Origin: Candidatus Bathyarchaeota archaeon
GTDB taxonomy: Archaea; Thermoproteota; Bathyarchaeia; 40CM-2-53-6
Direction: 5' to 3'
DNA: 64,000 bases
Assembly (NCBI GenBank): GCA_963726255.1
Contig: CAVSBL010000002.1
Span: 1,408,001-1,472,000, forward strand
This document shows positions 4,601 through 60,169 of the stretch, one piece after another (position 1 is the stretch's first letter; each line of letters begins with the position of its first letter). The notes beneath the pieces were generated by a model, which was not told the DNA's origin, made no database searches, and saw only the letters and a program-made list of their open reading frames with translations. The translations under genes were made by a program, and so were the position numbers.

Positions 4601-5426
4601 ACTGGAGTAGTTCATGGAGTTCTTGGATGATGTTAACGGGAACGCCTGACTCCAGAGCTTCTTTGAGTTTCTGGTTTATCCTGATAATGTCGACGAGCTT
4701 GTGCGTAAGGTCGTCCTCTGATCTGATTCCTGATTCGAGAGTGATGGATGGCCTTACCGTTACTGCTGGGACGGGTAGAACTTGGAGGATCATCCATTCG
4801 GGCCGTGCGGCGGTGGGTTCCATGCCTAGTAATCGGAGGTCTTCGTCCGGGATTCGTTCGAGTCGCTCCCGAATTTGGCTTGGGTTTAGCCTAGCTGCGC
4901 CGGCTTCCGCCATTTCATGGAAGGTGGTTGGTTTCGCGTGTTCAATTTGGTATTGGCGGGCTCCGCAGTGTGGGCATTCCTGGCTCTTCTTCGCATCCTT
5001 CATGACAGTGTCGTAGAATGTGGATGGGATCTCGTTGAGTTGCTTTTGCTGCCTCTGCATCATTTCATTGTATGCCTTGATCTTGTCGGCGGAGAGAAGT
5101 ATGCGGCCGCAGTTTCGGCATGTGACCTGAAGCAGTTTGTGGATAAGCTTCGCGAAGGCCACGTGGACGACTGGTTCTGCCAGTTCAATGTGCCCAAAGT
5201 GTCCAGGGCATGCGGATGCGGTGTTGCCGCAAGTCTTGCACTTCTGTCGTGGCTCTAGGGTGCCGAGGCGGCCGTCCATCAAGCCCGAAACAATTGGAAC
5301 GCCGTCTTCATCGTAAGTGTCGGCGGTTTGAATTTCAACCGCGGAAAGTTTGCGTATTTCACCTGGGGACGTGAGCGTAAAGTGGATACTGCCGATTACT
5401 TTGGTTGGTTCTTCAGCGACCGACAT
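1614..5426 (-). CDS. rpoA: RNA polymerase largest subunit, unsplit A'/A''
   Basis: NADFDGDEMN active site, CPGHFGHI, and A''-type SIGEPGTQMTLRTFH and ENVIVGQ in one ~1270 aa ORF; start taken at MSVAEE. Confidence 0.97.
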   Translation of the reverse strand: MSVAEEPTKVIGSIHFTLTSPGEIRKLSAVEIQTADTYDEDGVPIVSGLMDGRLGTLEPRQKCKTCGNTASACPGHFGHIELAEPVVHVAFAKLIHKLLQVTCRNCGRILLSADKIKAYNEMMQRQQKQLNEIPSTFYDTVMKDAKKSQECPHCGARQYQIEHAKPTTFHEMAEAGAARLNPSQIRERLERIPDEDLRLLGMEPTAARPEWMILQVLPVPAVTVRPSITLESGIRSEDDLTHKLVDIIRINQKLKEALESGVPVNIIQELHELLQYHVTTYFDNEVSGLPPARHRSGRALKTLSQRLKGKEGRFRGNLSGKRVDFSARTVISPDPNIDINEVGVPLDVAQRLTIPERVTPWNIDELKQLIRNGPDQYPGALYIVRPDGRRVRLEFVTERESLAEAIQPGFIVERHIRDGDIVLFNRQPSLHRMSIMAHTVKVLPYKTFRLNPCVCPPYNADFDGDEMNLHVPQGEEARTEAKLLMQVQDQILSPRYGGPIIGAKTDLLTAAYLLTRKSTYLNKEEVGKLITAAGYRGELPPPEIKRPEELWSGKQIFSLFLPAGFDFVAKSSMVTKEDGSSVVVKDGTLVEGVIDKNTIGAERSETLFHRIVKDSGSEPARIFLNGLIKLLDRFITLRGFTYGIDELDISAGVRDKISKAVKKAEEHVQDLIDQYKRKTLERLPGRSVEESLELRIMDELSKARDQAGELAEQYLKTETDNSGVIMTKTGARGSMLNIAQMVATVGQQSIRGQRIRRGYRDRALPFFERGDVGAEARGFVYASYQEGLTPVEFFFHSMGGREGLVDTAVRTQQSGYMQRRLINALEHIRVEYDGTVRDSRGDIIQFRYGEDGVDTAKSDHGKAVNTERLVERVELTIEKGAKASKAYIEKRVAEVREDLTPSLADQLKDSLLRVKLTRKGVDTAIKEAVKNYRKSMIEPGEAAGIVSAQSIGEPGTQMTLRTFHFAGVREQNVTLGLPRLIEIVDARKIPSTPSMIVYLDKKRRTSREKAQEVATRITHTTLGDIASIIESDITKMRIVVTLNTEAMREREVVLKDVKAAVTPGGCKVEVERNTVHITPQDMDIPQFNRLVLRLPLMHVKGIPQVKRALVMEEKTGEKSEWVIRTEGSNLELTLETEGVDTTRTISNNMHEVAEVLGIEAARNVIIKEATAVLEEQGLDVDIRHVMLVADAMTASGEVLQVGRHGVSGEKASTLAKAAFEITIPTIVDAAVKGTRDTLRGVAENVIVGQQVPMGTGLIEVYMSMPEKGKK

Positions 5427-5427
5427 T

Positions 5428-8400: not shown

Positions 8401-8790
8401 CGAACGAAGCATTACGGGAAAATCGCCGATATAGACAATCTCGGTTTGACCCTCCCTCTCCCCGATCACAGGAGTCATCTCCAAGTGGAGGGGGGCGGCG
8501 TAAGTCAGGTTGCGAATTCTAGCCTCAGTTGGAAAGATCTGCCGTTCCGACCCGTCTACTTCAGTTACCCGCGGCGTTCCAATCTCAATTTTGCCGAGTT
8601 TGATTTTCAGCGGATAGTCTTCAATCTCAATTGGGATCTCTCCGGTTTCGTCGACAATGGCTTGCAGCCCAGTCTCTATGAACTCATTGTATGAGTCGAC
8701 GTGTTGCCTAACCAGCCCTTTCTCTTCCAGGAAATGTTTGATTAAATCCCAGATTTGAGGGCTAACAGTTCCAGCCGTAGTTACAGCCAC
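5428..8790 (-). CDS. rpoB: RNA polymerase subunit B (unsplit)
   Basis: ETPEGSNCGL, GDKFASRHGQKG, GGLRFGEMERD, C-terminal Zn site. Confidence 0.97.
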   Translation of the reverse strand: MAVTTAGTVSPQIWDLIKHFLEEKGLVRQHVDSYNEFIETGLQAIVDETGEIPIEIEDYPLKIKLGKIEIGTPRVTEVDGSERQIFPTEARIRNLTYAAPLHLEMTPVIGEREGQTEIVYIGDFPVMLRSKICPLSRMSAEELISIGEDPLDPGGYFIVNGAERVVVALEDLAANKILVDKEQTGVHPTYKAKIFSTTVGFRARTEVTLKTDGAMYITMPGVPSDIPIVVMMKALGYEEDSRIAEMISTDETLQNQLATTFEKSVGVVSQRDALLYIGNRLAPGQVEDYRLKKAEASVDRNFLPHIGRSPEDRKEKAACIAEVGVRVIELKLGIRGPDDKDHYANKRLKLAGSLLAELFRISFRNLIRDLKYQLERITIRRHAELSISNAIRPGIITERIQHAIATGNWVRGRVGVTQLLDRTNYASTLSHLRRLQSPLSRSQPNLEARDLHPTHWGRLCPSETPEGSNCGLVKNLALSAVISIGVDSREFVSKLRRMGVVPVDEADSKLRETGAKVFVDGLIAGYASEADKLAAELIRMRRGAEISSEVNVAYSPPLVEGGRNALYVNCDQGRVRRPLIIVENSKPRLTREHVEAVQRGEMRWEDLVDRGVIEYLDADEEENALIAPSPNRMNERTTHVEIAPYTILGICASLIPYPEHNQSPRNAYESAMAKQALGIFCVNYANRVDSRGHILHYPQVPMVRTKPMDIIKYDSRPAGQNCVVALLCYQGYNMEDAIIINKSSVDRGLFRSTFYRVYEGECRQYLGGLRDKFEVPEAGIRGYRGDRYYRLLEEDGVISVESEVTGNSVLIGRTSPPRFLEEYREFEVKGPTKRDSSVGMRPSEEGIVDAVFLSESIEGNRLVKARVRDTRIPELGDKFASRHGQKGVIGTLIPQENMPFSEQGIVPDVIINPHAIPSRMTIGQFVEAVGGKVASLRGEPVDGTAFSNEGPAALRDALLELGFQHSGREVLYNGVDGKKLVADIFMGVVYYQKLHHMVADKMHARARGQVQMLTRQPTEGRARGGGLRFGEMERDCLIGHGASALLRDRLLEESDKYTAMVCEVCGLLAYHDVKQNKYICRVDGDKAVISAVQLSYAFKLLLQELMALGVAPRLEVSERA

Positions 8791-10297: not shown

Positions 10298-11791
10298 CTA
10301 GAACCATCTTGAGATGACGACTTTTCTGTCCGTGAAGAAGTTGATCGCGTCGAAGCCTTGTCCGTGTAGGTCTCCGAAGAAAGAGTCTTTCCAGCCGCTG
10401 AATGGGAAGTAAGCTACAGGAGCCGCTATTCCTATGTTGACCCCGACGTCTCCTGCCAGTACTCTGTGTTTGAACTCTCTAGCCCACTTGCCGTTTTGTG
10501 TGAATATTGATGCTGCATTGCCATATGGGTTCTCATGGATGATTCTAAGAGCCTCTTCGAAGTCCTTGGCTCTGATCAAGCACATGACGGGTCCGAAGAT
10601 CTCTTCACTGCCAATCTTGCTCTTCGGGTTGACTTTATCGAATATTGTTGGGCCGATGAAGTAGCCTTTCTCGTAACCTGGCACTTTGATATTTCGACCG
10701 TCGAGGATCAATTCGGCCCTTTCCTTGATGCCGGTTTCGATGTAGGATAGGACCTTCTCTTTGGCTTGCGCTGAGCGAAGCGGCCCCATTTGCACAGTTT
10801 CATCTAAGCCGTAACCGGTTTTGACAGCCTTCGCGGCTTCCAATAGCTTCTTCTTCAGTTGCTCGTAGAAAGCATCGTCACCAACGGCTACTACGTTAGC
10901 ACCTGCTAAGCATCTTTGACCTGCACAGCCGTAGACTGAGTTCATTACAGCAGGCATGATCTTGTCGAGTGGTGCATCAGGCATAACCAAGAGGAAGTTC
11001 TTCGCACCACCTTGGCATTGTGCCCGCTTGCCGCCTGCAGTTGCTTTAGCGTAAACGTATTTCGCGACGGGTGTTGAGCCTACAAAAGACACGCCCCTCA
11101 CGTCTTTGCTTTCGAGAAGCGCATCAGAGACATCTCTTGATCCGTTCACGAGGTTGACCACGCCTGGTGGAAAACCTGCCTCGTCTACTAGTTCGAACAG
11201 CTTGTTTTGGGTCAGTGGGACTTCGCTTGAGGGCTTCAGGACATAGGTATTCCCGCACGCGACAGCATAGGGTAGGAACCACCATGGGATCATTGCTGGG
11301 AAATTGGAGGGGGGAAGGCATGCGAAGATTCCCAATGGCTGCAGGACACATTCCTCATCCAGACCGGGAGCGATGGTCTCTAAGTTGTATCCCATCATCA
11401 GCGTAGGAATGCCTGCCGCATGTTCAACACATTCAATCGCTCGTCGAACTTCGCCTCGAGCCTCGTCGATGGTCTTCCCATGTTCCTTCGTTAGGATTTG
11501 AGACACTTCTTCGAAATGCTCTTCCATCAAATTCTTGAGGGTGAACATGTAGCGTGCACGCGTGAGCGGAGGCGTTTCCCTCCATTCATCATAAGCAGCT
11601 TGGGCATACCGGATAGTCTCTTCCACCTCTTCTCTGGTGGACATTGGGACACGGGCTAGCACTTCGGTTGTGGCTGGGTTGACGACGTCTAGGGTCTTAG
11701 TCGATTTTGACGCAACCCATTCGCCGTTGACATAATTCTTTATGACTTCGGCCTGGGCCTCACGCCCTATGACCTTTGTAGCCTGTACCAT
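10298..11791 (-). CDS. mmsA: CoA-acylating (methyl)malonate-semialdehyde dehydrogenase
   Basis: SFVGST, GGAKN, GCAGQRCLA catalytic Cys, EEIFGP, FSGWKDSFFGDLH, C-terminal SRWF. Confidence 0.9.
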   Translation of the reverse strand: MVQATKVIGREAQAEVIKNYVNGEWVASKSTKTLDVVNPATTEVLARVPMSTREEVEETIRYAQAAYDEWRETPPLTRARYMFTLKNLMEEHFEEVSQILTKEHGKTIDEARGEVRRAIECVEHAAGIPTLMMGYNLETIAPGLDEECVLQPLGIFACLPPSNFPAMIPWWFLPYAVACGNTYVLKPSSEVPLTQNKLFELVDEAGFPPGVVNLVNGSRDVSDALLESKDVRGVSFVGSTPVAKYVYAKATAGGKRAQCQGGAKNFLLVMPDAPLDKIMPAVMNSVYGCAGQRCLAGANVVAVGDDAFYEQLKKKLLEAAKAVKTGYGLDETVQMGPLRSAQAKEKVLSYIETGIKERAELILDGRNIKVPGYEKGYFIGPTIFDKVNPKSKIGSEEIFGPVMCLIRAKDFEEALRIIHENPYGNAASIFTQNGKWAREFKHRVLAGDVGVNIGIAAPVAYFPFSGWKDSFFGDLHGQGFDAINFFTDRKVVISRWF

Positions 11792-11960
11792 ATCAGTTCA
11801 CTAAACTTGGACACCGTCCAATCGGTTATTAGCCTTACGGTGTAGTATCATCAAGGACAATGCGATTGACTTCGTCTGATAGTGGGGAAAGTTGTGCATA
11901 CCAAGATGCGGCTATCAGCTCTCACCTTTAGCCGCCTAGCCGCACATTTCCCAAGTGGTA

Positions 11961-13304
11961 CTAGGCAACCTCTTTGTCTGCTACCTCAAGCGCCCTGTCG
12001 AGCACGCTGACGCCCTGCTCGAATTCTTCTTTCTTGATTATCAGGGGTGGGGCGACGGTTAGGTAGTTGATCCATGTGTTGATGAACACACCGTTCTTCA
12101 TGCATTCTGCGGCGACGCGGTCAACAACCAAAGGTTTGCCCTGTAGCTTATCCTCACGAGTATTGAAGCCCTCCTTGGATTTCCTGTTGCGGACCAATTC
12201 AAGTGCCCAGAAAAGGCCAAGCCCGCGCACATCTCCTACTGAAGGATGTTTATCTTGCAACGCTTTCAACTGTTTTCCAATGGATTGCCCCATTTCACGT
12301 GAGCGTTCAACGAGGCCTAGCCGCTTGTATTCTCCGATGGCCGCGACCCCTGCTGCCAATGTCAGTGGGTGCGCCTCGTAAGTGTGACCGTGCGCGAAGT
12401 AATTCTCCTCAAAATAATCCGAAATTTCGCGAGTTGTTGCGGTGACACTCAGCGGAACATACGCACCAGTGATTCCCTTGGCAGTTGTCATAATGTCGGG
12501 TTTGACCTTCCAGTGGTCTACCGCAAACCATTCGCCTGCCCGTCCCCAACCTGACATGACCTCGTCACAAATCAGTAGGACTTCGTGTTGCTCTGTAATC
12601 TCGCGGAGGCGGGGAAGGTATTCGTCAGGAGGAACGAGTATCCCATTGGTTCCAACAATCGGCTCGACAATGATGGCTGCGACGTTCGATTCATGCTTAA
12701 TCATGTACTCAATATAGTCGGCGCATGCGATGCCACAGTTGGGATATTCCAACCCGAAGGGACAACGATAGCAGTAGGCATCTGGTCCAAAAATAACCCC
12801 TCCCATTTTGCCGGAAGGTTCAATCGGGTATCGTCGTGGATCACCCGTGGCTGCAATTGAACCCGCAGTCGAACCGTGGTAGGATGAGTAGCGGGAAATT
12901 ATCTTGTACTTGCCCGTGAACTGCCTCGCAATCTTGAACGCAGCTTCGTTTGCCTCGGTCCCTGACGTAGCGTAGAAAAACTTCTCAAGTCCTTGGGGCA
13001 TAACCTCCAAGAGAGATTTCGTTAATCTTGCGCGTACATCCGTGGTAAAAGATGGCGCTGCGTAGGGAAGCTTCTTGGCTTGTTCGCAGATTGCTTCAAT
13101 TACAGCCTTATTCCCGTGACCTAGATTGGAACACATCAGTTGGGATGAAAAATCAAGAAAACGCTGGCCTGACGCGTCTGTAAAGTAGCATCCTTCTGCG
13201 CTAACAATCTCGCGAGGAACCCACCCTTTTTGCGCTCGCCAAGTTCCATACGTGTACTCTTTTGATACTTTCACAACGTCCGACTGGGTAGCAGCCTGAA
13301 CCAT
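11961..13304 (-). CDS. Class III (omega-amino acid) aminotransferase
   Basis: SGTEANE, YHGST, DEVMSGWGR, TAKG PLP-lysine, HGHTY. Confidence 0.9.
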   Translation of the reverse strand: MVQAATQSDVVKVSKEYTYGTWRAQKGWVPREIVSAEGCYFTDASGQRFLDFSSQLMCSNLGHGNKAVIEAICEQAKKLPYAAPSFTTDVRARLTKSLLEVMPQGLEKFFYATSGTEANEAAFKIARQFTGKYKIISRYSSYHGSTAGSIAATGDPRRYPIEPSGKMGGVIFGPDAYCYRCPFGLEYPNCGIACADYIEYMIKHESNVAAIIVEPIVGTNGILVPPDEYLPRLREITEQHEVLLICDEVMSGWGRAGEWFAVDHWKVKPDIMTTAKGITGAYVPLSVTATTREISDYFEENYFAHGHTYEAHPLTLAAGVAAIGEYKRLGLVERSREMGQSIGKQLKALQDKHPSVGDVRGLGLFWALELVRNRKSKEGFNTREDKLQGKPLVVDRVAAECMKNGVFINTWINYLTVAPPLIIKKEEFEQGVSVLDRALEVADKEVA

Positions 13305-46424: not shown

Positions 46425-47593
46425 TTACTGATCCTCCGCCCTGCCAAGTCTAGAATCTATCGGGATATATGGCAGCGCCGTTTTTCCCACGTATAGAGCC
46501 TTAGGTCGAATCAGCCTGTTTGCTTCTAGATATTCAATCGCGTGCGCGGTCCATCCGGCAATTCTACTCATGGCGAAGATGGCGGTGAACAAATCTGTGC
46601 TGATTCCAAGCACGTGAAAGACGATGCCTGAGTACGAGTCCACGTTCGGGAAAATCGGAAGCCCCTCGAGGTGTTTTCGCCGCTCGTCTCAATCGCTTCC
46701 GCTGTGTCGAATAACTTCGTTTGGCCCCTCTTTGCCGCTAGTTCTCCGCCAAGTTTCTTTAGAATCACATATCTTGGATCCCAAGTCTTGTAAACGCGAT
46801 GGCCGAATCCCATGATCTTCTTTTTCTGAGCGAGGCATTCGGTGACGTAACTCTCCGCTCTAGATGGCTCGCCCACCTCCATGACCGTCCGCAATGCAGC
46901 TTCGTTAGCGCCCCCGTGGAGTGGCCCTCTCAACGTCCCGATCCCTGAAGTTATTATGGAGTACATATCCGCTAGCGTTGAAGCAGTCACCGTGCACGAG
47001 AAGGTTGACGCGTTCATCTCGTGCTCCGCGTGAAGAATCAGGGCGACATCCATGACCTGGGCGTCGTACGGCTCAGGCTCCTTTCCCGTTAACATATACA
47101 GAAAATCTGCTGCGTGACTTAGTCCAAGTTTTGGTAAAATGGGCTCTCTTTGGTTTCTTATTCTGTCAAATGCGGTAATTATCGTGGGTGTTTTAGCTAA
47201 GATTCTAAGCGCCTTATCGATTCGTTCCTCGATGCTGTCCGTCATCGGGTGAGGGTCGTACACGCCGAGGGCCGAGACTGCTGTCCTTAAGACGTCCATT
47301 GGATCGCTGCTGGCGGGACATGAGCGAATTAGTTGCAGCACGCCTGGCTCAAGCGTGCGGTAGGACTCAATTCGACCCTTGAATTCGTCCAATTGGGATT
47401 TTGTTGGGAGCCAACCGTAGATGAGCAGGTAGGTAGTTTCTTCGAAGGTGGAGTGTTCGGATAGGTCATCGATGCTGTAGCCGCGGTAGAAGAGTTTGCT
47501 CGCTTCTCCGTCTATAAAACAGATCTTACTCTCTTTCACGTATACATTGTCAAGCCCTTTGTGAATGACAACGGGCTCTTTTACAGCAGTCAA
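46425..47593 (-). CDS. Citrate/2-methylcitrate synthase, frameshifted near 46685
   Basis: HAEHEMNAST, GPLHGGAN, MGFGHRVYK..DPR; C-terminus FPNVDSYSG...SRIAGW...LIRP is in another frame. Confidence 0.88.
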
Positions 47594-47674
47594 TTCGACC
47601 TGAATGTGATTCTACCTGGTCGTTTATACAAATTGCTTAGAAAAAAGAGAGGAGGGAAAATTTAGCCGGTTGGA

Positions 47675-49781: not shown

Positions 49782-51080
49782 TTACGCGGTTCTTATCGTT
49801 GCTGCCCCTTGCAGGCCAAGCTCCTTAATTGAAATCTCCCGCATCTTGAACTTCTGGATTTTCCCCGTAACCGTCATAGGAAACGAGTCTGTGAACTTGA
49901 AGTAGGCTGGAACCTTGAAGTACGCTATTCTCGCTTTGCAGTATTCCTGAAGTTCCAGGGCTGTTGCAGTCTGCCCAGGTTTCAGTTTGACCCACGCCAT
50001 GACTTCTTCTCCGTACTTTCGGCTTGGAACTCCGATTACTTGAACATCCGAAACCTTGGGATGCGTGTAGAGGAAATCTTCCACTTCTCTCGGGAAAATC
50101 TTCTCGCCGCCACGGCTAATCATATCCTTAGTTCGCCCGACGATGTTCACGTAGCCATTCTGTTGCATAACTGCAAGGTCTCCAGTGTGCATCCAACCCT
50201 CGGAGTCAATGGCTTCCCGAGTGGCTTCTGGATTGTTCCAATACTTCAGCATCACGAGGTAACCGCGAACGCACAACTCTCCCGCAGATCCGCATGGTAG
50301 AGTTCGGCGATGAACATTGTTGGTACGCCGTGAAGCGCTGTGCACTTTTCCTCCTCCACAGTCCTGAGGACGGTTTCCGCGCTGAAAGCATCCGAGGGAA
50401 GAACCATGGTTGCACCATGGGTAACGCACGCAAGGTTCCCTAGCACCATTCCGAAACAATGGTAGAAGGGTACTGGGATGCACAATCTGTCGTGGTGAGT
50501 GAAATTCATTCCCTCGCCAACGAAGAAACCATTATTCAAGATGCCATAATGGGTTAGGGTGGCGCCTTTCGGAAAACCAGTGGTTCCCGACGTATATTGA
50601 ATGTTGATGGCGTCATAACATTCGAGCGCCCTTTCTCTTTCTCTAAGCTCGGCTGGGGAGGAGTTCATTGTTCCGATGTCTATGAAACGTTCCCAGGGAA
50701 GCATTGAGGATGGGGAGGGCTCACCGCAATTGCTGAGTGTTATGACTCGTCGTAGGGCGGGGACACGGGTTGCTTTGATTTCCTGGTCAGGCGAATTGAG
50801 TCATGACCCATTCCGCGTTGTTCGGGGACCATATGCCGACGCAATCTCCCTTCTGCACGCCGAACCCGAGAAGCGCTGCGGCAAATTCATCCACCCGTTC
50901 CTTGAGCTGTGCGTAAGTGAACCTGAGGCCCTGATGCCTTGAAACGAGCGCCTCTCCATCCTCATACCTAGAGACTACCTCGTCGAAGAAACTCCCAACC
51001 GTCTTTTCGATGAGAAGCCTATCTGCCGGGCCTTGTTGGTAGCTTGGGCCCGGCCTGTTTTCCTTCATTTGCGCTCGCAC
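49782..51080 (-). pseudogene. AMP-binding acyl-CoA synthetase with two internal deletions and frame changes
   Basis: Three fragments: N-terminus to EWVMTQFA; [15 protein letters not shown]...[10 protein letters not shown]; GELCVRGY...HTGDL...FPMTVTGKIQKF. The TAK..NINP segment and the GSPCP/YGxTE segment are missing. Confidence 0.8.
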
Positions 51081-51831: not shown

Positions 51832-53036
51832 ATGGCTCGTTATACCGTTGTGACGATGCCAGGAGACGGGATCGGCAATCAGGTTATGCCGGAGGCACTA
51901 CGTGTCCTAAGGGCAGTTGGTTTCGATGCAGATTATATCCATGCCGACATAGGCTGGGAGTTTTGGCGGAGCGAGGGAAACGCGCTGCCCAGTCGCACGA
52001 TTGACCTGCTGGCTAAGCACAAGCTGGGACTGTTTGGCGCCATCACATCCAAACCAAAGAAAGAGGCTGAAGCCGAGCTGGACCCTAAGCTACGCGATAA
52101 AGGACATGTCTACTACAGCCCCATCGTGACTATGCGTCAACGCTTCAACCTGGATATCTGCGTGCGGCCCTGCGTAGGCTTTCCCGGCAATCCGCTGAAC
52201 TATATCCGCAAAAGACCTGATGGTGGCTTCGAAGAGCCGCAGATCAACGCTACCGTCTTCCGCCAGAACACAGAGGGCCTGTATTGTGGCATCGAGTGGA
52301 CGAACCCGCCGGATATTGTCCGTGCTGCGCTGGACTCGCATCCCAAATTCAAGGCCTTCGCCGACGTTCCCGGGCAGGACCTCGCCGTAAGCGTGCGGAT
52401 CGTTACTCGGCCGGCGGCGCAGCGGATCATCACCGCAGCGTTTGAGTTCGCCAAAAAGAAGGGTTTCAAGGGAGTGACCATTTGCGAGAAGCCAAACGTG
52501 GTGCGCGAAACCTCTGGCATGATGGAGGAAGTTGCGAAGGAAATTCAAAAGACAAAGTTCCCTGACATCCAACTCTGGCGCAACAACATCGATGCGCAGT
52601 TAATGTGGTTGAACAAGAACCCGGAAAGCTTCAACGTAATCGTCGCTTCAAATCTCTTTGGCGACATCCTCTCCGATGCCATAGCCGGGTTGGTTGGTGG
52701 GCTGGGCTTCGCCGCTTCCGGGAATATTGGGAAGGAAGTTGCGGTCTTTGAACCGACACACGGGTCTGCCCCTAAGTACCGGAATTGAATCCGCCAATCG
52801 TGAATCCGATCGCCACCATCCTGGCGGGAGCGATGCTACTGGAACACGTCGGCGAAACTGCCAAAGCGAAAAAGATCTGGGATGCAGTTGGCGCCGTCGT
52901 GAGGGAGGGAAAGGTTCGCACTTACGACATGATGCGCCTCACCGGCGGGCCGAAAGTACTCCAACAAGGGGCAGCCTCAACACCTCAAATGACGGATGCA
53001 ATACTAGCCAAACTGGATAGGGAGAAGGAGGCTTAG
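51832..53036 (+). CDS. Isocitrate/isopropylmalate-family beta-decarboxylating dehydrogenase, frameshifted near 52780
   Basis: PGDGIG, RQNTEGLY, NLFGDILSD, FEPTHGSAPKY, then NPIATILAGAMLLEH in the next frame. Confidence 0.88.
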
Positions 53037-53041
53037 GCGAA

Positions 53042-54304
53042 ATGACAGGAAAAACATTAGCGGAGAAGTTGATTGGATCACACACCGCTAAGGGATCTGT
53101 TTCGGTTGGAGAGATCGTAATAGTCAAAGTGGATTACACCTTTAGTCACGACGCAGCCGGACCACTTCTAATTCAGCAACTAAGCAAATTGAAAAACGAC
53201 CTCTCTAGCTCCGACAAGAATCGGACGATCTTCTTCATCGATCATGCAGTTCCAAGCCCCACAAAAGAACTATCAAACGATCAGGCAACCGTCAGGAATT
53301 ACGCCTCAATCAACGGACTGATCTTATCTGATGCAGGTAACGGCATTTGTCACCAAATAATCGCGGAAGACTACGCGGCTCCGGGAGACCTACTTGTTGG
53401 AACAGACTCACACAGCTGCACGGCTGGTGGTCTGTGTGCATTCGGAACTGGCATGGGCGCGACAGATGTTGCAATCGCGATGAAACTAAGGAAAACATGG
53501 CTGCGTGTCCCAGAATCAATACGGATGAATATTGAGGGTCGCCTTCCGAGAGGCGTATTCGCCAAGGACTTGATTCTGAAGACCCTATCCATACTCGGAA
53601 CAGACGGAGCAACCTACAAGTCACTAGAATTCGATGGACCAGCAATCGATGAACTAGAAGTTTACGGCAGATTGACCTTGACTAACATGACTGTTGAAGC
53701 TGGCGCCAAGACAGGCCTCGTCAAGTCGGACGCACGCACAAAACAGTATCTCACGGAGTTTGGTCGGGAGCACCAATGGAAGGAAATCCATGCGGATGAT
53801 AATGCTTCCTACGAATCGGAAATCACAATCAACGCTTCGGAACTGCAACCTCAAATTGCTTTCCCCGGTTCGCCCTCCAACGTCAAACCGGTCTCCGAAG
53901 CTAAAGATGTGAAGGTTAACGAGGTCTTCATCGGAAGTTGCACAAACACCCGAATCGAAGATATGCGGATCGTGGCACAAATCTTCAGGAAGAAACAAAA
54001 AGCGAAGAATCTCAAGTTGATAGTAACCCCCTCATCTAGGAACCTGTACCTGAAATTGATGGAAGAAGGAATTCTGGAAACCTTACTACAAGCAGGAGCA
54101 GTAATCACCCCCCCTGGATGTGGAGTATGCTACGGAGCAGTTGGCGGAATCCCCGCCGACAACGAAGTGATCTTCTCCACTTCGAACAGAAACTTTCCAG
54201 GCCGAACAGGAAACCCGAAAGCCCAGACATACCTGGGATCACCAGCAACAGCAGCGGCAACCGCAATCACTGGTATCATTACGGATCCAAGAGAGTTTGT
54301 CTGA
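53042..54304 (+). CDS. Aconitase-family hydratase large subunit (LeuC/HacA/DmdA type)
   Basis: DHAVP, GICHQ, GTDSHSCT, IGSCTN, GCGVCYG, STSNRNFPGR. Confidence 0.92.
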   Translation: MTGKTLAEKLIGSHTAKGSVSVGEIVIVKVDYTFSHDAAGPLLIQQLSKLKNDLSSSDKNRTIFFIDHAVPSPTKELSNDQATVRNYASINGLILSDAGNGICHQIIAEDYAAPGDLLVGTDSHSCTAGGLCAFGTGMGATDVAIAMKLRKTWLRVPESIRMNIEGRLPRGVFAKDLILKTLSILGTDGATYKSLEFDGPAIDELEVYGRLTLTNMTVEAGAKTGLVKSDARTKQYLTEFGREHQWKEIHADDNASYESEITINASELQPQIAFPGSPSNVKPVSEAKDVKVNEVFIGSCTNTRIEDMRIVAQIFRKKQKAKNLKLIVTPSSRNLYLKLMEEGILETLLQAGAVITPPGCGVCYGAVGGIPADNEVIFSTSNRNFPGRTGNPKAQTYLGSPATAAATAITGIITDPREFV

Positions 54305-54320
54305 GGAGAAGGTGTAAAGA

Positions 54321-54815
54321 ATGGCTGGACGAGCGTGGAAATTTGGGGACAACATCAGCACGGACGAAATAACTCCGGGACGGTACATGGGTCTTCGGTC
54401 GAACCTGCCCGAACTGGCGAAACACACCCTCGAGGATGCTAGAAAGGAGTTCCCCGGTAGCGTAAAGCCAGGAGACTTCGTTGTGGCTGGAAAGAATTTT
54501 GGGATGGGTTCAAGTCGAGAGCATGCGCCAATTGTCATTAAGACGTGCGGTGTCGCCGCAGTCCTTGCTCAGTCGTTTGCAAGAATATTCTATCGCAACG
54601 CAATCAACATAGGATTGCCAGCGATTGTTTGTGACACAACAATAATCGATGAAAGCGACCAACTCGAATTGCATCTCACGGACGGTGTCGTAGAGAACCT
54701 GACAAGAAAAACCAAGATCCAGTTCCCAGCAATGTCAAAGACCATGGAGACAATCCTTAGCGAAGGCGGACTTATCGCATACGTGGAAAAACATGGAGAT
54801 CTGGTTTTCTCGTGA
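54321..54815 (+). CDS. Aconitase-family hydratase small subunit (LeuD/HacB type)
   Basis: GDNISTDEITPG, NFGMGSSREHA, SFARIFYRNAINIG. Confidence 0.92.
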   Translation: MAGRAWKFGDNISTDEITPGRYMGLRSNLPELAKHTLEDARKEFPGSVKPGDFVVAGKNFGMGSSREHAPIVIKTCGVAAVLAQSFARIFYRNAINIGLPAIVCDTTIIDESDQLELHLTDGVVENLTRKTKIQFPAMSKTMETILSEGGLIAYVEKHGDLVFS

Positions 54816-55338
54816 GAAGAAAACATGACCAATTCAAGAGAATCTTTCCAGAAGTAAGTCAAATCCATAATCCAAAGCTGATCGAGGCCGTCCTGAGGAC
54901 TTGGCAGCTCGCTCAAGAGCGCGGTTGCTGGAAAGTGGACGATTTAGAACATATTCCATTCACCCTACTTGTTCAGACAAAAACGTCCTTGCTTGAACAC
55001 ACGAGACGTGTAACAAGGATGGCGATGGCTGTGGCTCGAGAGAGGGGTGACCTGAATATGGACTATGTTATTGCAGGCGGGCTTCTTCATGATGTGGGTA
55101 AGCTTCTAGAGTACGAAAGTGCGGGCGGCACGTTGTAAAATCGAGACCGGGCGAACTTGTTAGACATCCCGTCTCCGGATATGGCCTCACGCGTGAAACT
55201 GACTTACCCCTAGAGGTAAGTCACATAGTCATGTCTCATTCAGAGGAAGGAGAGAAAGTCAAGAGGACACCTGAAGCGATTCTAATTCACCATTGCGACT
55301 TTATCGACTTTGAGATAGCCAAGAGAAAGGCAAAATGA
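54812..55338 (+). CDS. HD-domain phosphohydrolase, frameshifted near 55130
   Basis: EHTRRV, LLHDVGK; continues as VRHPVSG...SHIVMSHS...RTPEAILIHHCD to TGA 55338. Confidence 0.82.
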
Positions 55339-56624
55339 GACTATACGAAAACGAAGCAAAACAACTCTTCCGGGACAAGGGCATTCCTGTACCTGGGCAA
55401 TATGGAATAATCCACTCGCCCTTGGAACTGGAAGGACTCAACGCACATTACCCATTGATCCTGAAGGCACTCGTTCTGGTCGGAGGACGAGGAAAAGCGG
55501 GAGGAATCAAGAAAGCCAAGAATCAGAATGAAGCCAAGGCCAAGGCTGAGGAGATCTTCAAGCAGGGAGTAAAAGACTACCCTGTCAAGTCCTTACTAGT
55601 CGAGGAAGCTGTAGACGAACTCGCGGCCTGCTACATAGGGACGACGATGGATCCCGCAACCTTCAACAACGTTGTCATAGCAAGCGCCACCGGCGGTGTA
55701 GATGTGGAGACGGTGGCTAGAGACACTCCAGAAGCAATCCACAGAATCGAGGTCTCAGGAAACGAGAGCAAGCTTGCCCCGAGTCTAGCAAACGAGTTAG
55801 CCAGGCAACTTATCGACGAGCTGCCTGCAAGTGCACGCGCCATCGCCAGCACAGAAAACCTAGCAGAGATTACTTCCAAGGTCTACAGCCTCTATCAAGA
55901 AGCTGACACCAAGATCTGTGAGATCAACCCACTGATAATCACGACTAAAGGACTTGTGGCCGCTGATGCTAAGATCGTGCTCGACGATAACGCGTTGTAT
56001 CGTCAGAAAAAGCTACTTGATTCCCTTGGAATCACTGACAAGCGGCATGATGCAGCCGAGACGACCGCGAACGAACGAAAGGCTCAGGCAAACGGTTTCA
56101 AATATGTAGATCTTCTTCCCGAAGACGCCTCAAAGGATCTGAAGAAAATCTACGTAGGGCTTGTCCCTGGTGGGGCTGGCTATGGAATTTTCTCAATTGA
56201 CGAGGTCGCGAATATTGGGAATCGATTCTTTCAAGGTAGAGTCATACCCGTCGATTTCATGGACTCAGGAGGGGGGCCTTCCCAGCGTCAGGTAGCCCAA
56301 ATGTTTCATTTGCTGATGGACTATGACAAAGTCGACCTAATCATAACCTCACGATTCGGGGGCATCTCAAGTTGCGACGTCTTCATCCGTGGACTCGTTG
56401 AAGCCCTCAGGGAAAGACATGCCCAGGGCAAGAAAATCATTCCTGTCTACGGTCGGATGGTCGGAACAGATCTTCCTAGTGCCCGAGAATACTTGGAGAA
56501 GGCCAAGGCCGAGACACCGGAAGCGCTCAAAGAGATGACAATCATCGTGGGAAACCAGCGTATCATGGCTGATGTGATCAAAGACGCCATCAACTGGCTC
56601 TTCACCGCCAAGAGGGAGAAATAA
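55335..56624 (+). CDS. ATP-grasp acyl-CoA ligase beta subunit (SucC/AclB/citryl-CoA synthetase-like)
   Basis: MRLYENEAK, GGRGKAGG, GGVDVE, EINPL, DAKIVLDDNA, divergent PGGAGYG substrate loop. Confidence 0.85.
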   Translation: MRLYENEAKQLFRDKGIPVPGQYGIIHSPLELEGLNAHYPLILKALVLVGGRGKAGGIKKAKNQNEAKAKAEEIFKQGVKDYPVKSLLVEEAVDELAACYIGTTMDPATFNNVVIASATGGVDVETVARDTPEAIHRIEVSGNESKLAPSLANELARQLIDELPASARAIASTENLAEITSKVYSLYQEADTKICEINPLIITTKGLVAADAKIVLDDNALYRQKKLLDSLGITDKRHDAAETTANERKAQANGFKYVDLLPEDASKDLKKIYVGLVPGGAGYGIFSIDEVANIGNRFFQGRVIPVDFMDSGGGPSQRQVAQMFHLLMDYDKVDLIITSRFGGISSCDVFIRGLVEALRERHAQGKKIIPVYGRMVGTDLPSAREYLEKAKAETPEALKEMTIIVGNQRIMADVIKDAINWLFTAKREK

Positions 56625-58759
56625 TGGAGAAAATACGTGCCGACCAAGGATTGCTCTACCATCTCATCATGCAAGTCCGACCGGAACTCGCGAGGCACAT
56701 CAAAGAGACAGGAGAGATTGACACAATTGTTGTGGGCCTGGGAGGCGAGGGCACGCGTCACGCGGGACTAATGCGCGACTTCGGGACTAGAATTGTTGCT
56801 GGAATTGCGCCGGGCCGTGGGGGCACTCGTATCCACGAGACAATTCCAGTATATGACACGGTTGCAGAGTGTCTCAAGGATCACCCATATGTCGCTGCGG
56901 CGAGCATTTGGCGGCAATTTTCCACGGCGAAGGAGGCGGTAATCGAGGTCATTGAAGCAGGTATTCCGCTTGTTGTCGTAATCACTGAAGGAATCCCTCT
57001 GCGCGATGTCCGCGAGATGCTCGTAGCTGCGAGAAGGAACAGAACAGTCCTGATTGGGGGAAACTCGCCTGGCATCATCTTTCCCCCTGAGCAGGTAAAG
57101 ATAGGGATGCTTCCCGACGTCTTCTACCCTGAAGAGATTGCCCCTGGGAAGGTCGGACCAAATGGGGTTACGATAATCTCTCGTAGTGGTGCAATTCTGT
57201 ACCATATGTCCGATGCTCTAGCAAGTGCAGGTATCGCTCAGAACGCGGTCATCGGTATCGGCGGCGATGCAGCGATTGGTTCCACTTTTGTGGATCTGAT
57301 CCCTCTTGTGATGAAGTATCCACACACCGAACTCGTGGTGATTGCAGGAGAGATAGGCGGTATCCAAGAAGAGCGACTGGCCGAGGATATTCTTGCCCAT
57401 CCCGGACGATACTCAAAACCCTTGGTAGCCCTCGTCTCAGGAGCACACGCCCCGGAAGGGAAGACAATGGGACACGCCGGAGCAATCGTCGCTCCAGGAC
57501 AAGCCTACGGCACCTTCAAGTCAAAAAAGGAAGCACTGGAGCGTGCAGGAGTAACCGTTGTCAACTCCCAGTACGACCTCATCGAGGCTGCAAAGACAAA
57601 ACTGAAGAAAACCTACTTCGACCCAGAACGATACTATCAGAAAATGCGACACACCTGGGACGCGAAAGCCACAACCCCGGGGTGGGGGACTGTAATTACC
57701 GAAGTAAAACCGAACAACATCATCATCTCGGGCTACTCACTGCAACAAATCGTTGGCCACAAAGGGCTCTTGGACGTGGTCAATCTCTTATTCGAAGGAG
57801 AGTTCGCCGCTCCAGAATTGATGAAAGAGTTGCGAACCACCGCCATGAAAGGAGCTCTCAAGCCAGGGCCCCCGATCGTAAGGTATGGAGATGAAGATAT
57901 CTCTCAGACCCTTGCTAGGGCTCTCATCTATGACGAAATTCTAGCGACGTTTCCGCAGAAGGGAAGATCAGCACCTAGACTCAAGACTGCCTTCGCTATG
58001 GGAAGAGTCGGAAGGTATCTTGCAGCAATCTTGCGAACTACATCCGCGCTCGACGACCTCTCGGAAGAATCGAGCTTCACTGAACTAATCTACCGAGCTA
58101 TAACTGGCAACACGGCCTTTGATCGTGAAAAAGGAAACCTCCTTGAAGCGATGGCTGTAGCATGTGTGGACCACGGTGTTACTCCTCCCTCAGCTCAGGT
58201 CGCTATCATCTCGGCAACAACAAGACCCGACTACTCGGTGTCGGTTGCAAGCGGAATTGGTGCGATAACGGACATCCACGGAGGAGCAGGAGCGAAGGCT
58301 GCGCATTTCTTCTCCGAATGTGTTTCTCGTTCCAAGAAAAATAAAGTCGATTTGGAGGAAGCCACTAGAATAGTAGTTACTGAGTATGTCAGAGCCGGGC
58401 GGAGGATTGAAGGTCTCGGCCATAGAATCCACACCCAGGACCCTAGGCGAGATGTTCTCTGGAAACTAAGTGAGGTTGCAGGGATAGCCGCAGAGAATGT
58501 AGCCGTTTCCAAGATCGTTTCTAAAGTGTTCAAGCAAGTGCGAGGGATGGACCTCCCAATCAACGTGGATGGAGTCATCGGGGCTATAGTCGCCGACATG
58601 GGACTGAATCCCATAGTCGCAAAAGTCCTCTTCATTTGGGGGCGCGTTGCGGGCCTCTCGGCACATTATTTCGAAGAGATTCTTTCTCAACCCGAGATGC
58701 GATCCATCAACTTCGCCCAAGCCGTCTACAAGGGAAAACTTCACCGGGAGCTACTATAG
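56624..58759 (+). CDS. SucD-like alpha subunit fused to a citryl-CoA lyase/citrate-synthase domain (ACL-like)
   Basis: ITEGIP, SRSG, GEIGG, MGHAGA phospho-His; then DHGVTPPS, HGGAG, GLGHRIH..DPR, INVDG. Confidence 0.85.
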   Translation: MEKIRADQGLLYHLIMQVRPELARHIKETGEIDTIVVGLGGEGTRHAGLMRDFGTRIVAGIAPGRGGTRIHETIPVYDTVAECLKDHPYVAAASIWRQFSTAKEAVIEVIEAGIPLVVVITEGIPLRDVREMLVAARRNRTVLIGGNSPGIIFPPEQVKIGMLPDVFYPEEIAPGKVGPNGVTIISRSGAILYHMSDALASAGIAQNAVIGIGGDAAIGSTFVDLIPLVMKYPHTELVVIAGEIGGIQEERLAEDILAHPGRYSKPLVALVSGAHAPEGKTMGHAGAIVAPGQAYGTFKSKKEALERAGVTVVNSQYDLIEAAKTKLKKTYFDPERYYQKMRHTWDAKATTPGWGTVITEVKPNNIIISGYSLQQIVGHKGLLDVVNLLFEGEFAAPELMKELRTTAMKGALKPGPPIVRYGDEDISQTLARALIYDEILATFPQKGRSAPRLKTAFAMGRVGRYLAAILRTTSALDDLSEESSFTELIYRAITGNTAFDREKGNLLEAMAVACVDHGVTPPSAQVAIISATTRPDYSVSVASGIGAITDIHGGAGAKAAHFFSECVSRSKKNKVDLEEATRIVVTEYVRAGRRIEGLGHRIHTQDPRRDVLWKLSEVAGIAAENVAVSKIVSKVFKQVRGMDLPINVDGVIGAIVADMGLNPIVAKVLFIWGRVAGLSAHYFEEILSQPEMRSINFAQAVYKGKLHRELL

Positions 58760-60169
58760 GTGGATTCGATCAGTCGCAGAATGGCACAATTTGCTCTGTC
58801 TTTGCGTTATGAGGCGATCCCTGAACCTGTTTTGCGAATGGCGAAGCGGTTGCTTCTGGACAGCATAGGCTGCGCTCTTGCCGCCGTTAAACTGAAGGAC
58901 ATTCAGGCAGCGTACAACTATGTTCAGCAGCTTGGAGGGAAGAAACAGGCAAGCATCATCTGGTACGGCGATAAAACAAACATGCCCAACGCAGCACTTA
59001 TGAACTCCCTTCTAATCCGTGCCATGGATTACAACGATATCTACTGGAAACAGGATCCCTGTCATCCGTCAGACATAATCCCTGCGGCACTAGCCCCAGG
59101 GGAGTATCGTGGCGTAAGTGGAAAGGAGTTAGTTACAGCGATCGTGATCGCCTATGAGCTTGAGATGAGACTGTGCCTTGCCGCTGATCCCGGGATTCGT
59201 GAAGTGGGTTGGCATCACGCAAGCCTTACGCAATTTGTAAGTCCTTTGGTCGCTGGACGAATGCTCGGCTTAAGCGAAGATCAAATGGTGTCAGCCGTCG
59301 GAATCGCCGGCTCAAGTCACTTCACTTTCGGCGGGGTGGTTGCAGGCCATCTGACGAACATGAAGAATGCAGCCGACCCCATGGCAACTGAAGCTGGAGT
59401 TCGCGGAGCGATGCTAGCAGCAACAGGCTATTCCGGTCCGGTGGAGATTTTTGAGGGGAAAGAGAGCCTATTTGAAGTACTATCGAAAGTGAGATGGAAT
59501 AGAAATGCGTTGATCGATCATCTAGGTGAAGGGTTCCTCATCACACAGTGTAGCTTCAAGGCGTTTCCAACGGAAGCACTGACGCATCAGCCGATCACGG
59601 CGACTTTGGAAATAATGCGAGAGAACAAAATCGATTCCCGTGAAGTCAGAGAAGTTCTTGTCGAGACAACGAATCGCGGAGCTGATATTCTATCTGACAA
59701 AAGCAAATACCATCCCACAACGAAGGAAACAGCTGATCATTCTCTTCCTTATTGCATAGCAGTGGCGATTGCCAAAGGAAATGTTCTACCATCTGACTTT
59801 GAAGAAAAAGCTCTCCAAGATCAATCTGTTCTGCAACTTCTTCCTAAGATCAAGGTTATTGCCAACCCTGAGATCGATGCCATTTTTCCAAATGTGAAAC
59901 GAACGATCGTCACCATCACGACAAGAGATGAGCGAACGTTCAAGAAGCAAGAGGACTTCGCTAGGGGAGAACCGGAACGGCCACTTTCCGAGCAAGAACT
60001 GATTGCCAAGTTCCATGCCAACGCGCAAGTCGCTTTGAGCAAGAGACAGCGGGAAGAACTGATTCAAGCTACTCTTGCCATTGACCAGTACAATGATGTC
60101 CGCAAATATGTGTCCCTTCTAGTTCGTGCTGCAACTCCTCGTTTCGACCGGATGCAAGTCCGGCGGTGA
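58760..60169 (+). CDS. prpD: MmgE/PrpD-family dehydratase (2-methylcitrate dehydratase-like)
   Basis: LLDSIGC, IRAMDYND, HPSD, ETADHSLPY. Confidence 0.85.
   Translation: MDSISRRMAQFALSLRYEAIPEPVLRMAKRLLLDSIGCALAAVKLKDIQAAYNYVQQLGGKKQASIIWYGDKTNMPNAALMNSLLIRAMDYNDIYWKQDPCHPSDIIPAALAPGEYRGVSGKELVTAIVIAYELEMRLCLAADPGIREVGWHHASLTQFVSPLVAGRMLGLSEDQMVSAVGIAGSSHFTFGGVVAGHLTNMKNAADPMATEAGVRGAMLAATGYSGPVEIFEGKESLFEVLSKVRWNRNALIDHLGEGFLITQCSFKAFPTEALTHQPITATLEIMRENKIDSREVREVLVETTNRGADILSDKSKYHPTTKETADHSLPYCIAVAIAKGNVLPSDFEEKALQDQSVLQLLPKIKVIANPEIDAIFPNVKRTIVTITTRDERTFKKQEDFARGEPERPLSEQELIAKFHANAQVALSKRQREELIQATLAIDQYNDVRKYVSLLVRAATPRFDRMQVRR

Follow-up and report, generated by a model that had tools for sequence, protein, structure and literature searches.

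ATP-citrate lyase (ACL) of type I, as found in Chlorobium limicola (6hxj), Methanothrix (6hxi/6znw) and human (ACLY), is built from an ATP-grasp ligase subunit and a CoA-binding/ligase subunit fused to a lyase of citrate-synthase fold, and carries a phospho-histidine motif. In the two-enzyme system of Hydrogenobacter thermophilus, a ligase derived from succinyl-CoA synthetase (SCS), namely citryl-CoA synthetase (CCS; CcsAB, 6hxq), is combined with a separate citryl-CoA lyase (CCL; Ccl, 6hxp). Moreover, a 'type II ACL' has been suggested for Magnetococcus (Mmc1_3638/3639; Hugler and Sievert 2011), which the accessible text of PMC6783814 and PMC5459899 treats as postulated and never purified. 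Here we describe a seven-gene operon at positions 51832-60169 of a 64,000-nt stretch of Candidatus Bathyarchaeota archaeon (GCA_963726255.1, CAVSBL010000002.1, 1,408,001-1,472,000 of the forward strand; the whole stretch is referred to as the window). At its core lies a ligase-lyase enzyme with the layout of an ACL, which by the features tested is predicted to be neither a type I ACL, nor the two-enzyme CCS/CCL system, nor an SCS.

ACL is used as a marker gene for the reverse tricarboxylic acid cycle in metagenomes. Because the enzyme of this operon has the same layout as ACL but an apparently separate origin, two misreadings of its family are possible: under its current database names, 'succinyl-CoA synthetase' or 'citrate synthase', or as evidence that CO2 is fixed. 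Based on comparisons of the operon to the known systems, combined with the gene content of the source genome, we propose, with a probability of about 0.5, that the operon constitutes a self-contained tricarboxylate module of citrate, cis-aconitate and isocitrate, which would interconvert acetyl-CoA and oxaloacetate with 2-oxoglutarate, with ATP coupling at the citrate step.

The source genome (G000) is that of a soil or sediment archaeon, 2.42 Mb in size, distributed over five contigs and 98.5% complete. The operon consists of seven open reading frames (ORFs), assigned through Pfam and NCBIfam profile searches of the encoded proteins, with intergenic gaps of 0-16 bases or overlaps of 1-4 bases:

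51832..53036, + strand: beta-decarboxylating dehydrogenase of the isocitrate/isopropylmalate/homoisocitrate dehydrogenase (IDH/IPMDH/HICDH) family, ~400 aa when read through (Pfam Iso_dh, 199 bits); in the window two Iso_dh pieces, 51832-52788 and a C-terminal part in another frame, 52785-53036
53042..54304, + strand: LeuC/HacA-type large subunit of an aconitase-family hydro-lyase, 420 aa (Pfam Aconitase, 328 bits)
54321..54815, + strand: LeuD/HacB-type small subunit, 164 aa, with the substrate loop GRYMGLRSNLPE (NCBIfam LEUD_arch, 190 against a cut-off of 109)
54812..55338, + strand: HD-domain metal-dependent phosphohydrolase, ~175 aa (Pfam HD, NCBIfam HDIG); in the window two pieces (Pfam HD), 54812-55138 and the remainder in another frame, 55102-55338
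55335..56624, + strand: SCS-beta-like ATP-grasp ligase subunit, 429 aa, counterpart of AclB/CcsA (ATP-grasp_2, 130 bits, and Ligase_CoA)
56624..58759, + strand: SCS-alpha/lyase fusion, 711 aa (Pfam CoA_binding, Ligase_CoA and Citrate_synt)
58760..60169, + strand: MmgE/PrpD-family protein, 469 aa, presumed tricarboxylate dehydratase (MmgE_PrpD_N, 233 bits; MmgE_PrpD_C, 146 bits)

Composition and origin of the ligase-lyase enzyme

The 711-aa fusion protein comprises CoA-binding and ligase domains at approximately residues 30-330, with the phospho-histidine at H284, and a lyase domain at approximately residues 345-711, which combines the length of a citrate synthase with the motifs of a CCL. In an alignment of 21 family members, MGHAGA (H284), DHG (H517), HGGAG (H552) and GHR (H600) are invariant, as are DPR (R608), NVD (D649), F670 and GR (R674), and the motifs align with those of the genome's own citrate synthase and of the short CCLs. 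The roles of these motifs in the fusion are presumably those that the motifs have elsewhere. Mapped by motif, the conserved residues match the active-site residues of citrate synthase as listed in the accessible part of PMC13147460. The agreement with the short CCLs covers DHGVTPPSAQ, HGGAG, GLGHRxHTxDPR and NVDG, while the lyase domain contains ~105 residues that are present in citrate synthase and absent from short CCLs and AclA. This combination makes the lyase half a direct test case for the relationship between citrate synthase, CCL and ACL.

Comparisons to structurally determined enzymes place both ligase parts closest to SCS. The best PDB scores of the alpha-like part are 213 bits for SCS, 128 for the CCS of H. 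thermophilus and 117 for the ACL of C. limicola, and the corresponding values of the beta-like part are 160, 61 and 38 bits. Conversely, the lyase half finds its best match in the H. thermophilus CCL (6hxp, 105 bits), ahead of citrate synthases (~41) and the isolated ACL lyase module (~28). In NCBIfam, all these assignments stay below the respective cut-offs, with the SCS models at 235 vs 353 (alpha) and 235 vs 370 (beta) and the best models of the lyase domain, those of CCL, at 180 vs 245.

With type I ACL the operon shares the two-gene layout and the catalytic motifs, as detected by Pfam and alignment. However, the Citrate_bind domain (PF16114) was found neither on the 429-aa beta-like protein (Pfam, E 0.001) nor in a search of the whole genome (0 matches), and the ACL ATP-grasp model (PF24948, Citrate_synth_N) reaches only 42 bits on this protein against a cut-off of 83, compared to 130 bits for the SucC-type ATP-grasp_2. 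The AclA proteins of other Bathyarchaeia differ as well, as they read RFGGA where the lyase domain of the fusion keeps HGGAG, and as the fusion is longer by the ~105 residues that it has in common with citrate synthase. The CcsAB and Ccl proteins of H. thermophilus resemble the operon in combining an SCS-derived ligase with a CCL-type lyase of the same catalytic motifs, and the chain annotated as 'Citryl-CoA synthetase large subunit' (6hxq_B) has, with 429 aa, the same length as the beta-like subunit. In contrast to that system, the operon lyase is fused to the alpha subunit, has citrate-synthase length and falls below the cut-offs of the CCL models, and the ligase is much closer to SCS than to CCS. 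SucCD, finally, provides the best sequence match of both ligase parts, but the operon enzyme is fused to a lyase, and the genome has a canonical SucCD at another place (C2:1179327-1181340).

A stand-alone CCL of 260 aa is also present in the genome (C2:1235017-1235799; L029:8018-8800) and passes NF004866 (282 vs 245). It adjoins thyX, far from the canonical SucCD, and many members of the genus have similar stand-alone copies.

For the phylogenetic comparison, AclB/AclA references were taken from three Bathyarchaeia (G135, G199 and G451) that were identified through a Citrate_bind search of 401 genomes of the phylum, and whose canonical AclB scores ~300 bits on this model. The tree of the alpha-ligase part (51 rows, 323 columns) was obtained by a careful search, those of the beta subunit (44 rows) and the lyase (40 rows) by quick searches; all AclAB references are from one class, and no named CCS or 'type II ACL' sequence is among the rows. 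In the alpha tree, the fusion family (13 rows) and AclA (3 rows) each form a 100/100 clade, and the two are separated by SCS alpha sequences, among which the fusion family nests. Constraining the fusion family and AclA to a joint clade lowers the log-likelihood by 21.5 units, with p 0.023 in the approximately unbiased (AU) test, for a grouping that was named after the tree had been seen, although the sequence-only reading had predicted the outcome beforehand. The beta tree agrees, with the family as a clade (support 100) on the SCS side of a split (support 100) from AclB. In the lyase tree, the family is placed within the CCL radiation, together with stand-alone proteins of ~365 aa (support 94), whereas AclA and citrate synthase are remote, on stems of 4.9 and 3.75, respectively. 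The stems of the fusion family are themselves long, at 1.7 and 2.05 changes per column in the alpha and beta trees.

Taken together, these data support a core enzyme that was probably assembled separately from type I ACL. The sequence-only reading had described the same seven tightly coupled genes, an architecture that mirrors ACL with SCS-like ligase subunits, and an intact phospho-histidine and lyase His/Asp set, all of which is borne out by the domain searches, the PDB scores and the family alignment. It had further proposed an independent fusion and put this to a phylogeny against AclA/AclB. With three references, no nesting within the canonical clades is found in the alpha, beta or lyase tree, and the proposal holds against type I ACL.

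A second fused family, of ~720 aa (query P0145), is represented by few named members, which are Planctomycetota, Pirellulales, Armatimonadetes and Latescibacteria metagenome-assembled genomes (MAGs). P0145 is only 39% identical in the ligase part and falls outside the clade of the fusion family in the alpha tree, and hence represents a different fusion family. The latter may be the fused ccsB-ccl type of Planctomycetes mentioned in the accessible text of PMC5459899. Compared by description only, as given in the available portions of those sources, this type and the postulated type II ACL resemble the operon enzyme in concept, being heteromeric ACL-like enzymes nearer to CCS/CCL than to type I. 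No Magnetococcales are found among the names of homologs listed for either the fusion family or P0145, and a literature search for the locus tag Mmc1_3638 returned PMC6783814 only.

Distribution, gene neighbourhood and the HD protein

At least 120 homologs of the fusion protein were found, all of them the same fusion or shortened copies of it, most with 707-726 aa and 61-96% identity. Those listed are archaeal or come from Thermoplasmatota, Bipolaricaulia/Acetothermia, Eisenbacteria and other MAGs, and among the matches listed the closest named relatives are 'Candidatus Bathyarchaeia' MAGs (96% and 86% identity). With 57-96% identity across Bathyarchaeia, Thermoplasmatota, Bipolaricaulia and other MAGs, the family has a wide distribution among uncultured lineages and is strongly conserved; no cultured organism is present among the names of homologs and cluster members listed. 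Database names among the listed homologs are 'succinyl-CoA synthetase alpha subunit', 'citrate/2-methylcitrate synthase' and 'hypothetical'. Within the genus of the source genome, a full-length copy is present in 5 of 23 genomes, compared to 0/38 genomes from other genera of the order.

The gene neighbourhood was compared at 24 loci with the fusion gene (L001-L004, L025, L026, L032-L049), many of which are close kin. The HD gene is near-constant, being present at 20/24 loci, with the four misses at loci of only 1.6-5.6 kb. The other partners are variable: at least one LeuCD pair is found at 13 of the 24, a PrpD-family gene at nine and the dehydrogenase at seven, where it opens the operon in the window and at L040, L046 and L047. 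Two loci (L040 and L047) have two LeuCD pairs and no PrpD, the second pair occupying the place of PrpD. Across lineages, the MmgE/PrpD protein and an aconitase-family enzyme are thus interchangeable in that place. At L047, a 2-oxoacid:ferredoxin oxidoreductase (OFOR) directly precedes the dehydrogenase, and the genes that come after encode a thiolase, a hydroxyacyl-CoA dehydrogenase/hydratase and a protein of the 2-hydroxyglutaryl-CoA dehydratase type. On a 'Thermotogae' MAG contig (L004), the ligase-lyase pair is located directly after citrate-lyase genes, namely a CitD/CitE-like fusion of acyl carrier protein and HpcH, and CitF (5862-8578), which places two citrate-cleaving systems in one operon-like row.

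The canonical ACL of other Bathyarchaeia is likewise clustered with aconitase-family and IDH-family enzymes. In the genomes of the three phylogenetic references, AclBA is positioned beside an IDH and a fused aconitate hydratase of 645 aa that passes NCBIfam NF005558 (950 vs 612; L119 in G135, L120 in G199, L122 in G451).

No other partner accompanies the ligase-lyase pair as constantly as the HD protein. Its residues H63, D94, K97, H119, H143, H160 and D163 are invariant in 17/17 aligned sequences and H93 is nearly so, yielding the complete H...HD...H...H...D set. A fold search with its AF2 model (pLDDT 94.9) gave the HD domain of YhaM as the best match (TMq 0.70), along with PgpH and HD-GYP, all of which are generic HD phosphohydrolases. 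The sequence search of the PDB returned weak matches only (E 0.019 and above) and the Atlas label reads 'HD domain-containing protein', and no specific function follows from any of these three. An HD protein is also located ~0.9 kb upstream of the canonical ACL cluster of G199, with 27% identity to those of the family and the invariant residues kept. In one Bathyarchaeial subgroup (L002, 12332-12880; L025, L032 and L034), the HD gene comes after the fusion gene and its product is only ~40% identical to that of the window; in L002, the only copy of this subgroup aligned, the motif reads AD, the His being lost. The constancy of the HD protein hints at a control or repair step undescribed for ACL-type enzymes.

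In the literature on ACL and citryl-CoA enzymes in Bathyarchaeota/Thermoplasmata and on type II ACL, a fusion with HD and PrpD partners is not described in the accessible texts, supplementary tables aside. A preprint (10.1101/2022.10.25.513756) reports 'homologs of ACL' in Bathyarchaeota, giving no detail in its visible part, and the accessible part of a fusion survey (PMC11237513) lists SucD-CS fusions only as Acl of Methanosarcinales. New here are the Bathyarchaeial version with PrpD, a genome whose only aconitase-family gene is located in the operon, canonical ACL clusters of the same class for direct comparison, and read-level proof of artefact frameshifts.

Proposed pathway and competing substrates

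The clues to the substrate that come from the accompanying enzymes of the operon point both towards and away from citrate. The large hydro-lyase subunit passes NCBIfam NF001614 (507 vs 385) and the homoaconitase family model hacA_fam (495 vs 386), and remains below the cut-off of the aconitate hydratase model NF005558 (PRK07229 type; 398 vs 612). The substrate loop of the small subunit, GRYMGLRSNLPE, shares an RSN(L/V)P motif with the fused, NF005558-passing aconitate hydratases beside canonical ACL; at that place, the M. jannaschii IPMI has YLV-YTKP and HACN YLRT-TDP, in an alignment that also included the PH LeuD. The gene that the sequence-only reading had called PrpD does belong to the MmgE/PrpD superfamily (Pfam), but its identity as PrpD is weakened, since among PDB entries IDS epimerase (98 bits) and the cis-aconitate decarboxylase IRG1/CAD (95-82) match at least as well as PrpD (72), and the PrpD equivalogs of NCBIfam reach at most 103 vs 575.

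For the dehydrogenase, the intact ortholog at L001:5207-6412 falls below every NCBIfam equivalog cut-off, with the homoisocitrate dehydrogenase AksF as the best (253 vs 500). Its nearest PDB entries are an NAD-IDH (6lky, 194 bits) and the HICDH of Thermus (183 bits). The substrate loop is conserved across phyla, and there are two family-specific insertions; an insertion rich in Lys and Arg is conserved. At the place of the HICDH Arg, no Arg is present. We take Ser113/Asn115 of E. coli IDH and Arg85 of Thermus HICDH to be the residues that matter in the substrate loops.

On this basis, we propose the following sequence of steps. The SCS-like beta/alpha ligase would convert the acid to its CoA thioester via the phospho-histidine, whereupon the fused domain of citrate-synthase fold would split the thioester into acetyl-CoA and a 2-oxo-dicarboxylate, in steps that may also reverse. 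The MmgE/PrpD protein and the LeuCD hydro-lyase would interconvert the tertiary and secondary hydroxy acids via an alkene of cis-aconitate type, i.e. plausibly as a split aconitase. Finally, the dehydrogenase would connect the secondary hydroxy acid with the next 2-oxo acid and CO2. What the data show is the gene content of operon and genome, the conserved catalytic motifs and neighbourhood, and an ancestry apart from type I ACL; which substrate is used, in which direction, how PrpD and LeuCD share the work and whether the HD protein has a role in it are inferred. Desulfobacter postgatei reportedly employs ACL to make citrate with a gain of ATP. For ACL, the accessible part of PMC13147460 gives a reaction energy of -8.0 +/- 0.8 kJ/mol, and either direction is therefore feasible.

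Two hydro-lyases that share the dehydration and rehydration of a tricarboxylate have precedents in the PrpD/AcnB or AcnD/PrpF pairs of the methylcitrate cycle, and in aconitase together with the homoaconitase Lys4 in fungal lysine synthesis. In the operon, however, the MmgE/PrpD protein is not a PrpD equivalog, the hydratase is of the archaeal LeuCD/HacAB type, and an ACL-like enzyme takes the place that a methylcitrate or homocitrate synthase has in those pathways.

For citrate, the CCL-type lyase motifs, the RSN(L/V)P loop, the link to CitEF at L004 and the OFOR directly before the dehydrogenase at L047 serve as clues, and the gene content of the genome points the same way. Apart from the large subunit in the operon, no aconitase-family protein (PF00330) was found in the genome search, and the operon appears to supply the sole aconitase of the organism. 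The same absence outside the operon holds for two further operon-bearing genomes (G015, which is 100% complete, and G021), and another two (G016 and G019) have an AcnA-type gene in addition to the operon. Among the members of the genus that are devoid of the operon, an AcnA-type gene is found in 12/18 and a bacterial-type LeuC in 14/18, counts that are not independent as the genomes are kin.

At the same time, the genome keeps two citrate synthase genes, of which one is full and the other is split by a frameshift in the window, along with a second Iso_dh gene, a second MmgE/PrpD gene, five OFOR alpha-type genes and four SdhA/FrdA-like genes. If the citrate synthases are to have any purpose, the operon must thus supply the aconitase. 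A haem-copper oxidase is present, CO dehydrogenase/acetyl-CoA synthase (CODH/ACS) was not found, and autotrophy is not indicated by any gene seen. The genome search also found no HMGL-like synthase (LeuA, CimA or homocitrate synthase, HCS) and no IlvD, DapF or CdhC; for LysX, nothing was found above the cut-off, only a weak RimK-like match (118 vs 276) beside a Zn_protease gene. The flow from citrate to 2-oxoglutarate is favoured because there is no other aconitase, no LeuA/HCS or IlvD, and the citrate synthases are kept.

Several observations weigh against citrate as the substrate. A third citrate-forming enzyme is not obviously needed, as two citrate synthases are already present, and none of the seven operon proteins reaches an equivalog cut-off in NCBIfam. 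The dehydrogenase loop reads YYSPIVTMRQ, as compared to YRSVNVTLRQ in IDH, so that the Ser is kept and the Asn replaced by Ile, and the best NCBIfam names of the dehydrogenase are homoisocitrate dehydrogenases, i.e. of the homo-series. In other phyla, the hydratases that accompany the pair have LeuD loops without the Arg. Moreover, two different hydro-lyases (PrpD and LeuCD, or two LeuCD pairs) are frequent in the clusters, while citrate needs one aconitase, and such a pattern is typical of methylcitrate or homocitrate chemistry. Finally, at three of the 24 loci (L038, L039 and L048), only the HD gene accompanies the ligase-lyase pair, with ~8 kb or more of flank on each side.

The main rival, which we consider unlikely, is a module of homocitrate, cis-homoaconitate and homoisocitrate that interconverts 2-oxoglutarate and acetyl-CoA with 2-oxoadipate. 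It would either replace homocitrate synthase and conserve ATP, or run in reverse at the expense of ATP, from 2-oxoadipate, as arising in lysine breakdown, to 2-oxoglutarate and acetyl-CoA. This would agree with the best NCBIfam names, AksF (253 bits, below the cut-off) and hacA_fam (passed), and with the dehydrogenase loop, in which the Asn of IDH is missing and Ile is found as in the Thermus HICDH, presumably at an equivalent position. The two hydro-lyases would match the split between homocitrate dehydration and homoaconitate hydration known from Thermus and fungi, and the L047 module, with its OFOR, thiolase, hydroxyacyl-CoA dehydrogenase/hydratase and 2-hydroxyglutaryl-CoA-dehydratase-type genes, provides a fitting setting. 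The LeuD loop of the operon also contains an Arg, as does the HACN of M. jannaschii, but its position is that of the aconitate hydratase type (RSN) and not of HACN (YLRT). Likewise, the lyase motifs are those of CCL with nothing altered, and neither a sink nor a source of 2-oxoadipate was found in the genome, with LysX at 118 vs 276, no DapF and no HMGL-like synthase. Without the operon, moreover, the citrate synthases of the organism would be left with no aconitase beside them.

Propionate metabolism, with a ligase-lyase that makes or splits 2-methylcitrate (propionyl-CoA and oxaloacetate), is quite improbable. Here PrpD and LeuCD would act as the hydro-lyases and a PrpB-like lyase encoded elsewhere would complete the route. 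A PrpD-family gene is present in the operon, a PEP_mutase/PrpB-like gene in the genome (C2:1088184-1089035), and genes for a citrate/2-methylcitrate synthase II and an acyl-CoA synthetase are located 1-4 kb upstream; replacement of PrpD by an aconitase-family enzyme is also known, as in AcnD/PrpF. The PrpB-like gene is, however, unlinked to the operon, and the PrpD equivalog score is 103 vs 575. Since 2-methylisocitrate is a tertiary alcohol, which a beta-decarboxylating dehydrogenase is unable to oxidise, methylcitrate fits the hydro-lyases but offers no substrate for the dehydrogenase that opens the operon here and at L040, L046 and L047. Both alternative substrates had been raised by the sequence-only reading; the chemistry of the dehydrogenase weakens methylcitrate, and homocitrate is retained as the principal competitor.

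Ordinary leucine (LeuCD/LeuB) or lysine (HacAB/HICDH) genes beside a divergent SCS, with no new pathway, are highly improbable: the LeuCD- and IPMDH-family domains and the proximity of the ligase parts to SCS are compatible with such an arrangement, but no LeuA/CimA/HCS synthase or IlvD was found in the 98.5% complete genome, a canonical SCS is encoded elsewhere while the ligase subunits are below the SCS cut-offs, and in several phyla this set of genes is seen again, each time with a fusion of ligase and lyase domain. A role of the operon in leucine or lysine biosynthesis is accordingly ruled out by genome content (no HMGL-like synthase, IlvD or DapF, and no LysX above the cut-off), and the hydro-lyase and the dehydrogenase are not for leucine or lysine synthesis, as the genes of those pathways were not found.

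A bolder possibility, which we regard as unlikely, is that the family represents a third, independently assembled ATP-coupled acyl-CoA lyase/synthase with a natural substrate other than citrate, for instance a reversible 'ATP-homocitrate lyase' that connects 2-oxoadipate with 2-oxoglutarate and acetyl-CoA; alternatively, it may operate as an ATP-yielding citrate synthase. An obligatory HD partner would in both cases control or proofread the phospho-enzyme or a nucleotide signal. On this view, PrpD (or the second LeuCD) and LeuCD would make up a genuine aconitase of two enzymes, and the operon would encode a module of central metabolism that is new for uncultured archaea and bacteria.

Frameshifts and neighbouring genes

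In the window, the dehydrogenase and HD genes are each broken by a single-base deletion, a correction to the seven-gene operon of the sequence-only reading, whose gene set is otherwise confirmed. The dehydrogenase gene lacks one G after 52779, and in the HD gene an AAAA run is short of one A, after 55115. Both genes are uninterrupted, in one frame, at the orthologous loci L001, L002, L025 and L026, and the extra base is present at both sites, at full depth, in contigs of three DNA runs (X1, X2 and X4), one of which differs from the window at only 3 of 1491 bases. The RNA-library run X20 also has the extra base at 52779, the sole site of the two that it covers, in contigs that span only 52098-54737 at low depth and in which DNA carry-over is possible. 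Over the 12.7 kb shared with L001, 4/4 single-base indels are bases missing in the window, two of them in homopolymer runs. Because the relatives read through and the run contigs contain the missing bases, both frameshifts in the operon are consensus errors. A pseudogene reading of the two genes is thereby ruled out, and all seven operon genes are intact, with the frameshifts being artefacts of the assembly.

The citrate synthase that had been noted ~4 kb upstream of the operon is real, although split by a frameshift in the assembly. This citrate/2-methylcitrate synthase II gene (46425-47611, minus strand) is interrupted near 46690, with the C-terminal catalytic part (NVDSYSG...) in another frame, which is probably another consensus error. 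Between this gene and the operon, an AMP-binding acyl-CoA synthetase gene (49782-50704, minus strand) is present in two pieces, and the window lacks ~250 bases that locus L001, which is 96% identical, has at this gene (3228-3477).

Further away, a single 1273-aa ORF (1614-5435, minus strand) contains RNA polymerase Rpb1 domains 1-5, so that the largest RNA polymerase subunit appears to be unsplit, with A' and A'' in one gene. An aldehyde dehydrogenase and a class-III aminotransferase are encoded adjacent to each other at 10298-13304 (minus strand), 40 kb from the operon, and could be a pair of the gamma-aminobutyrate (GABA) type or the lysine-6-aminotransferase type.

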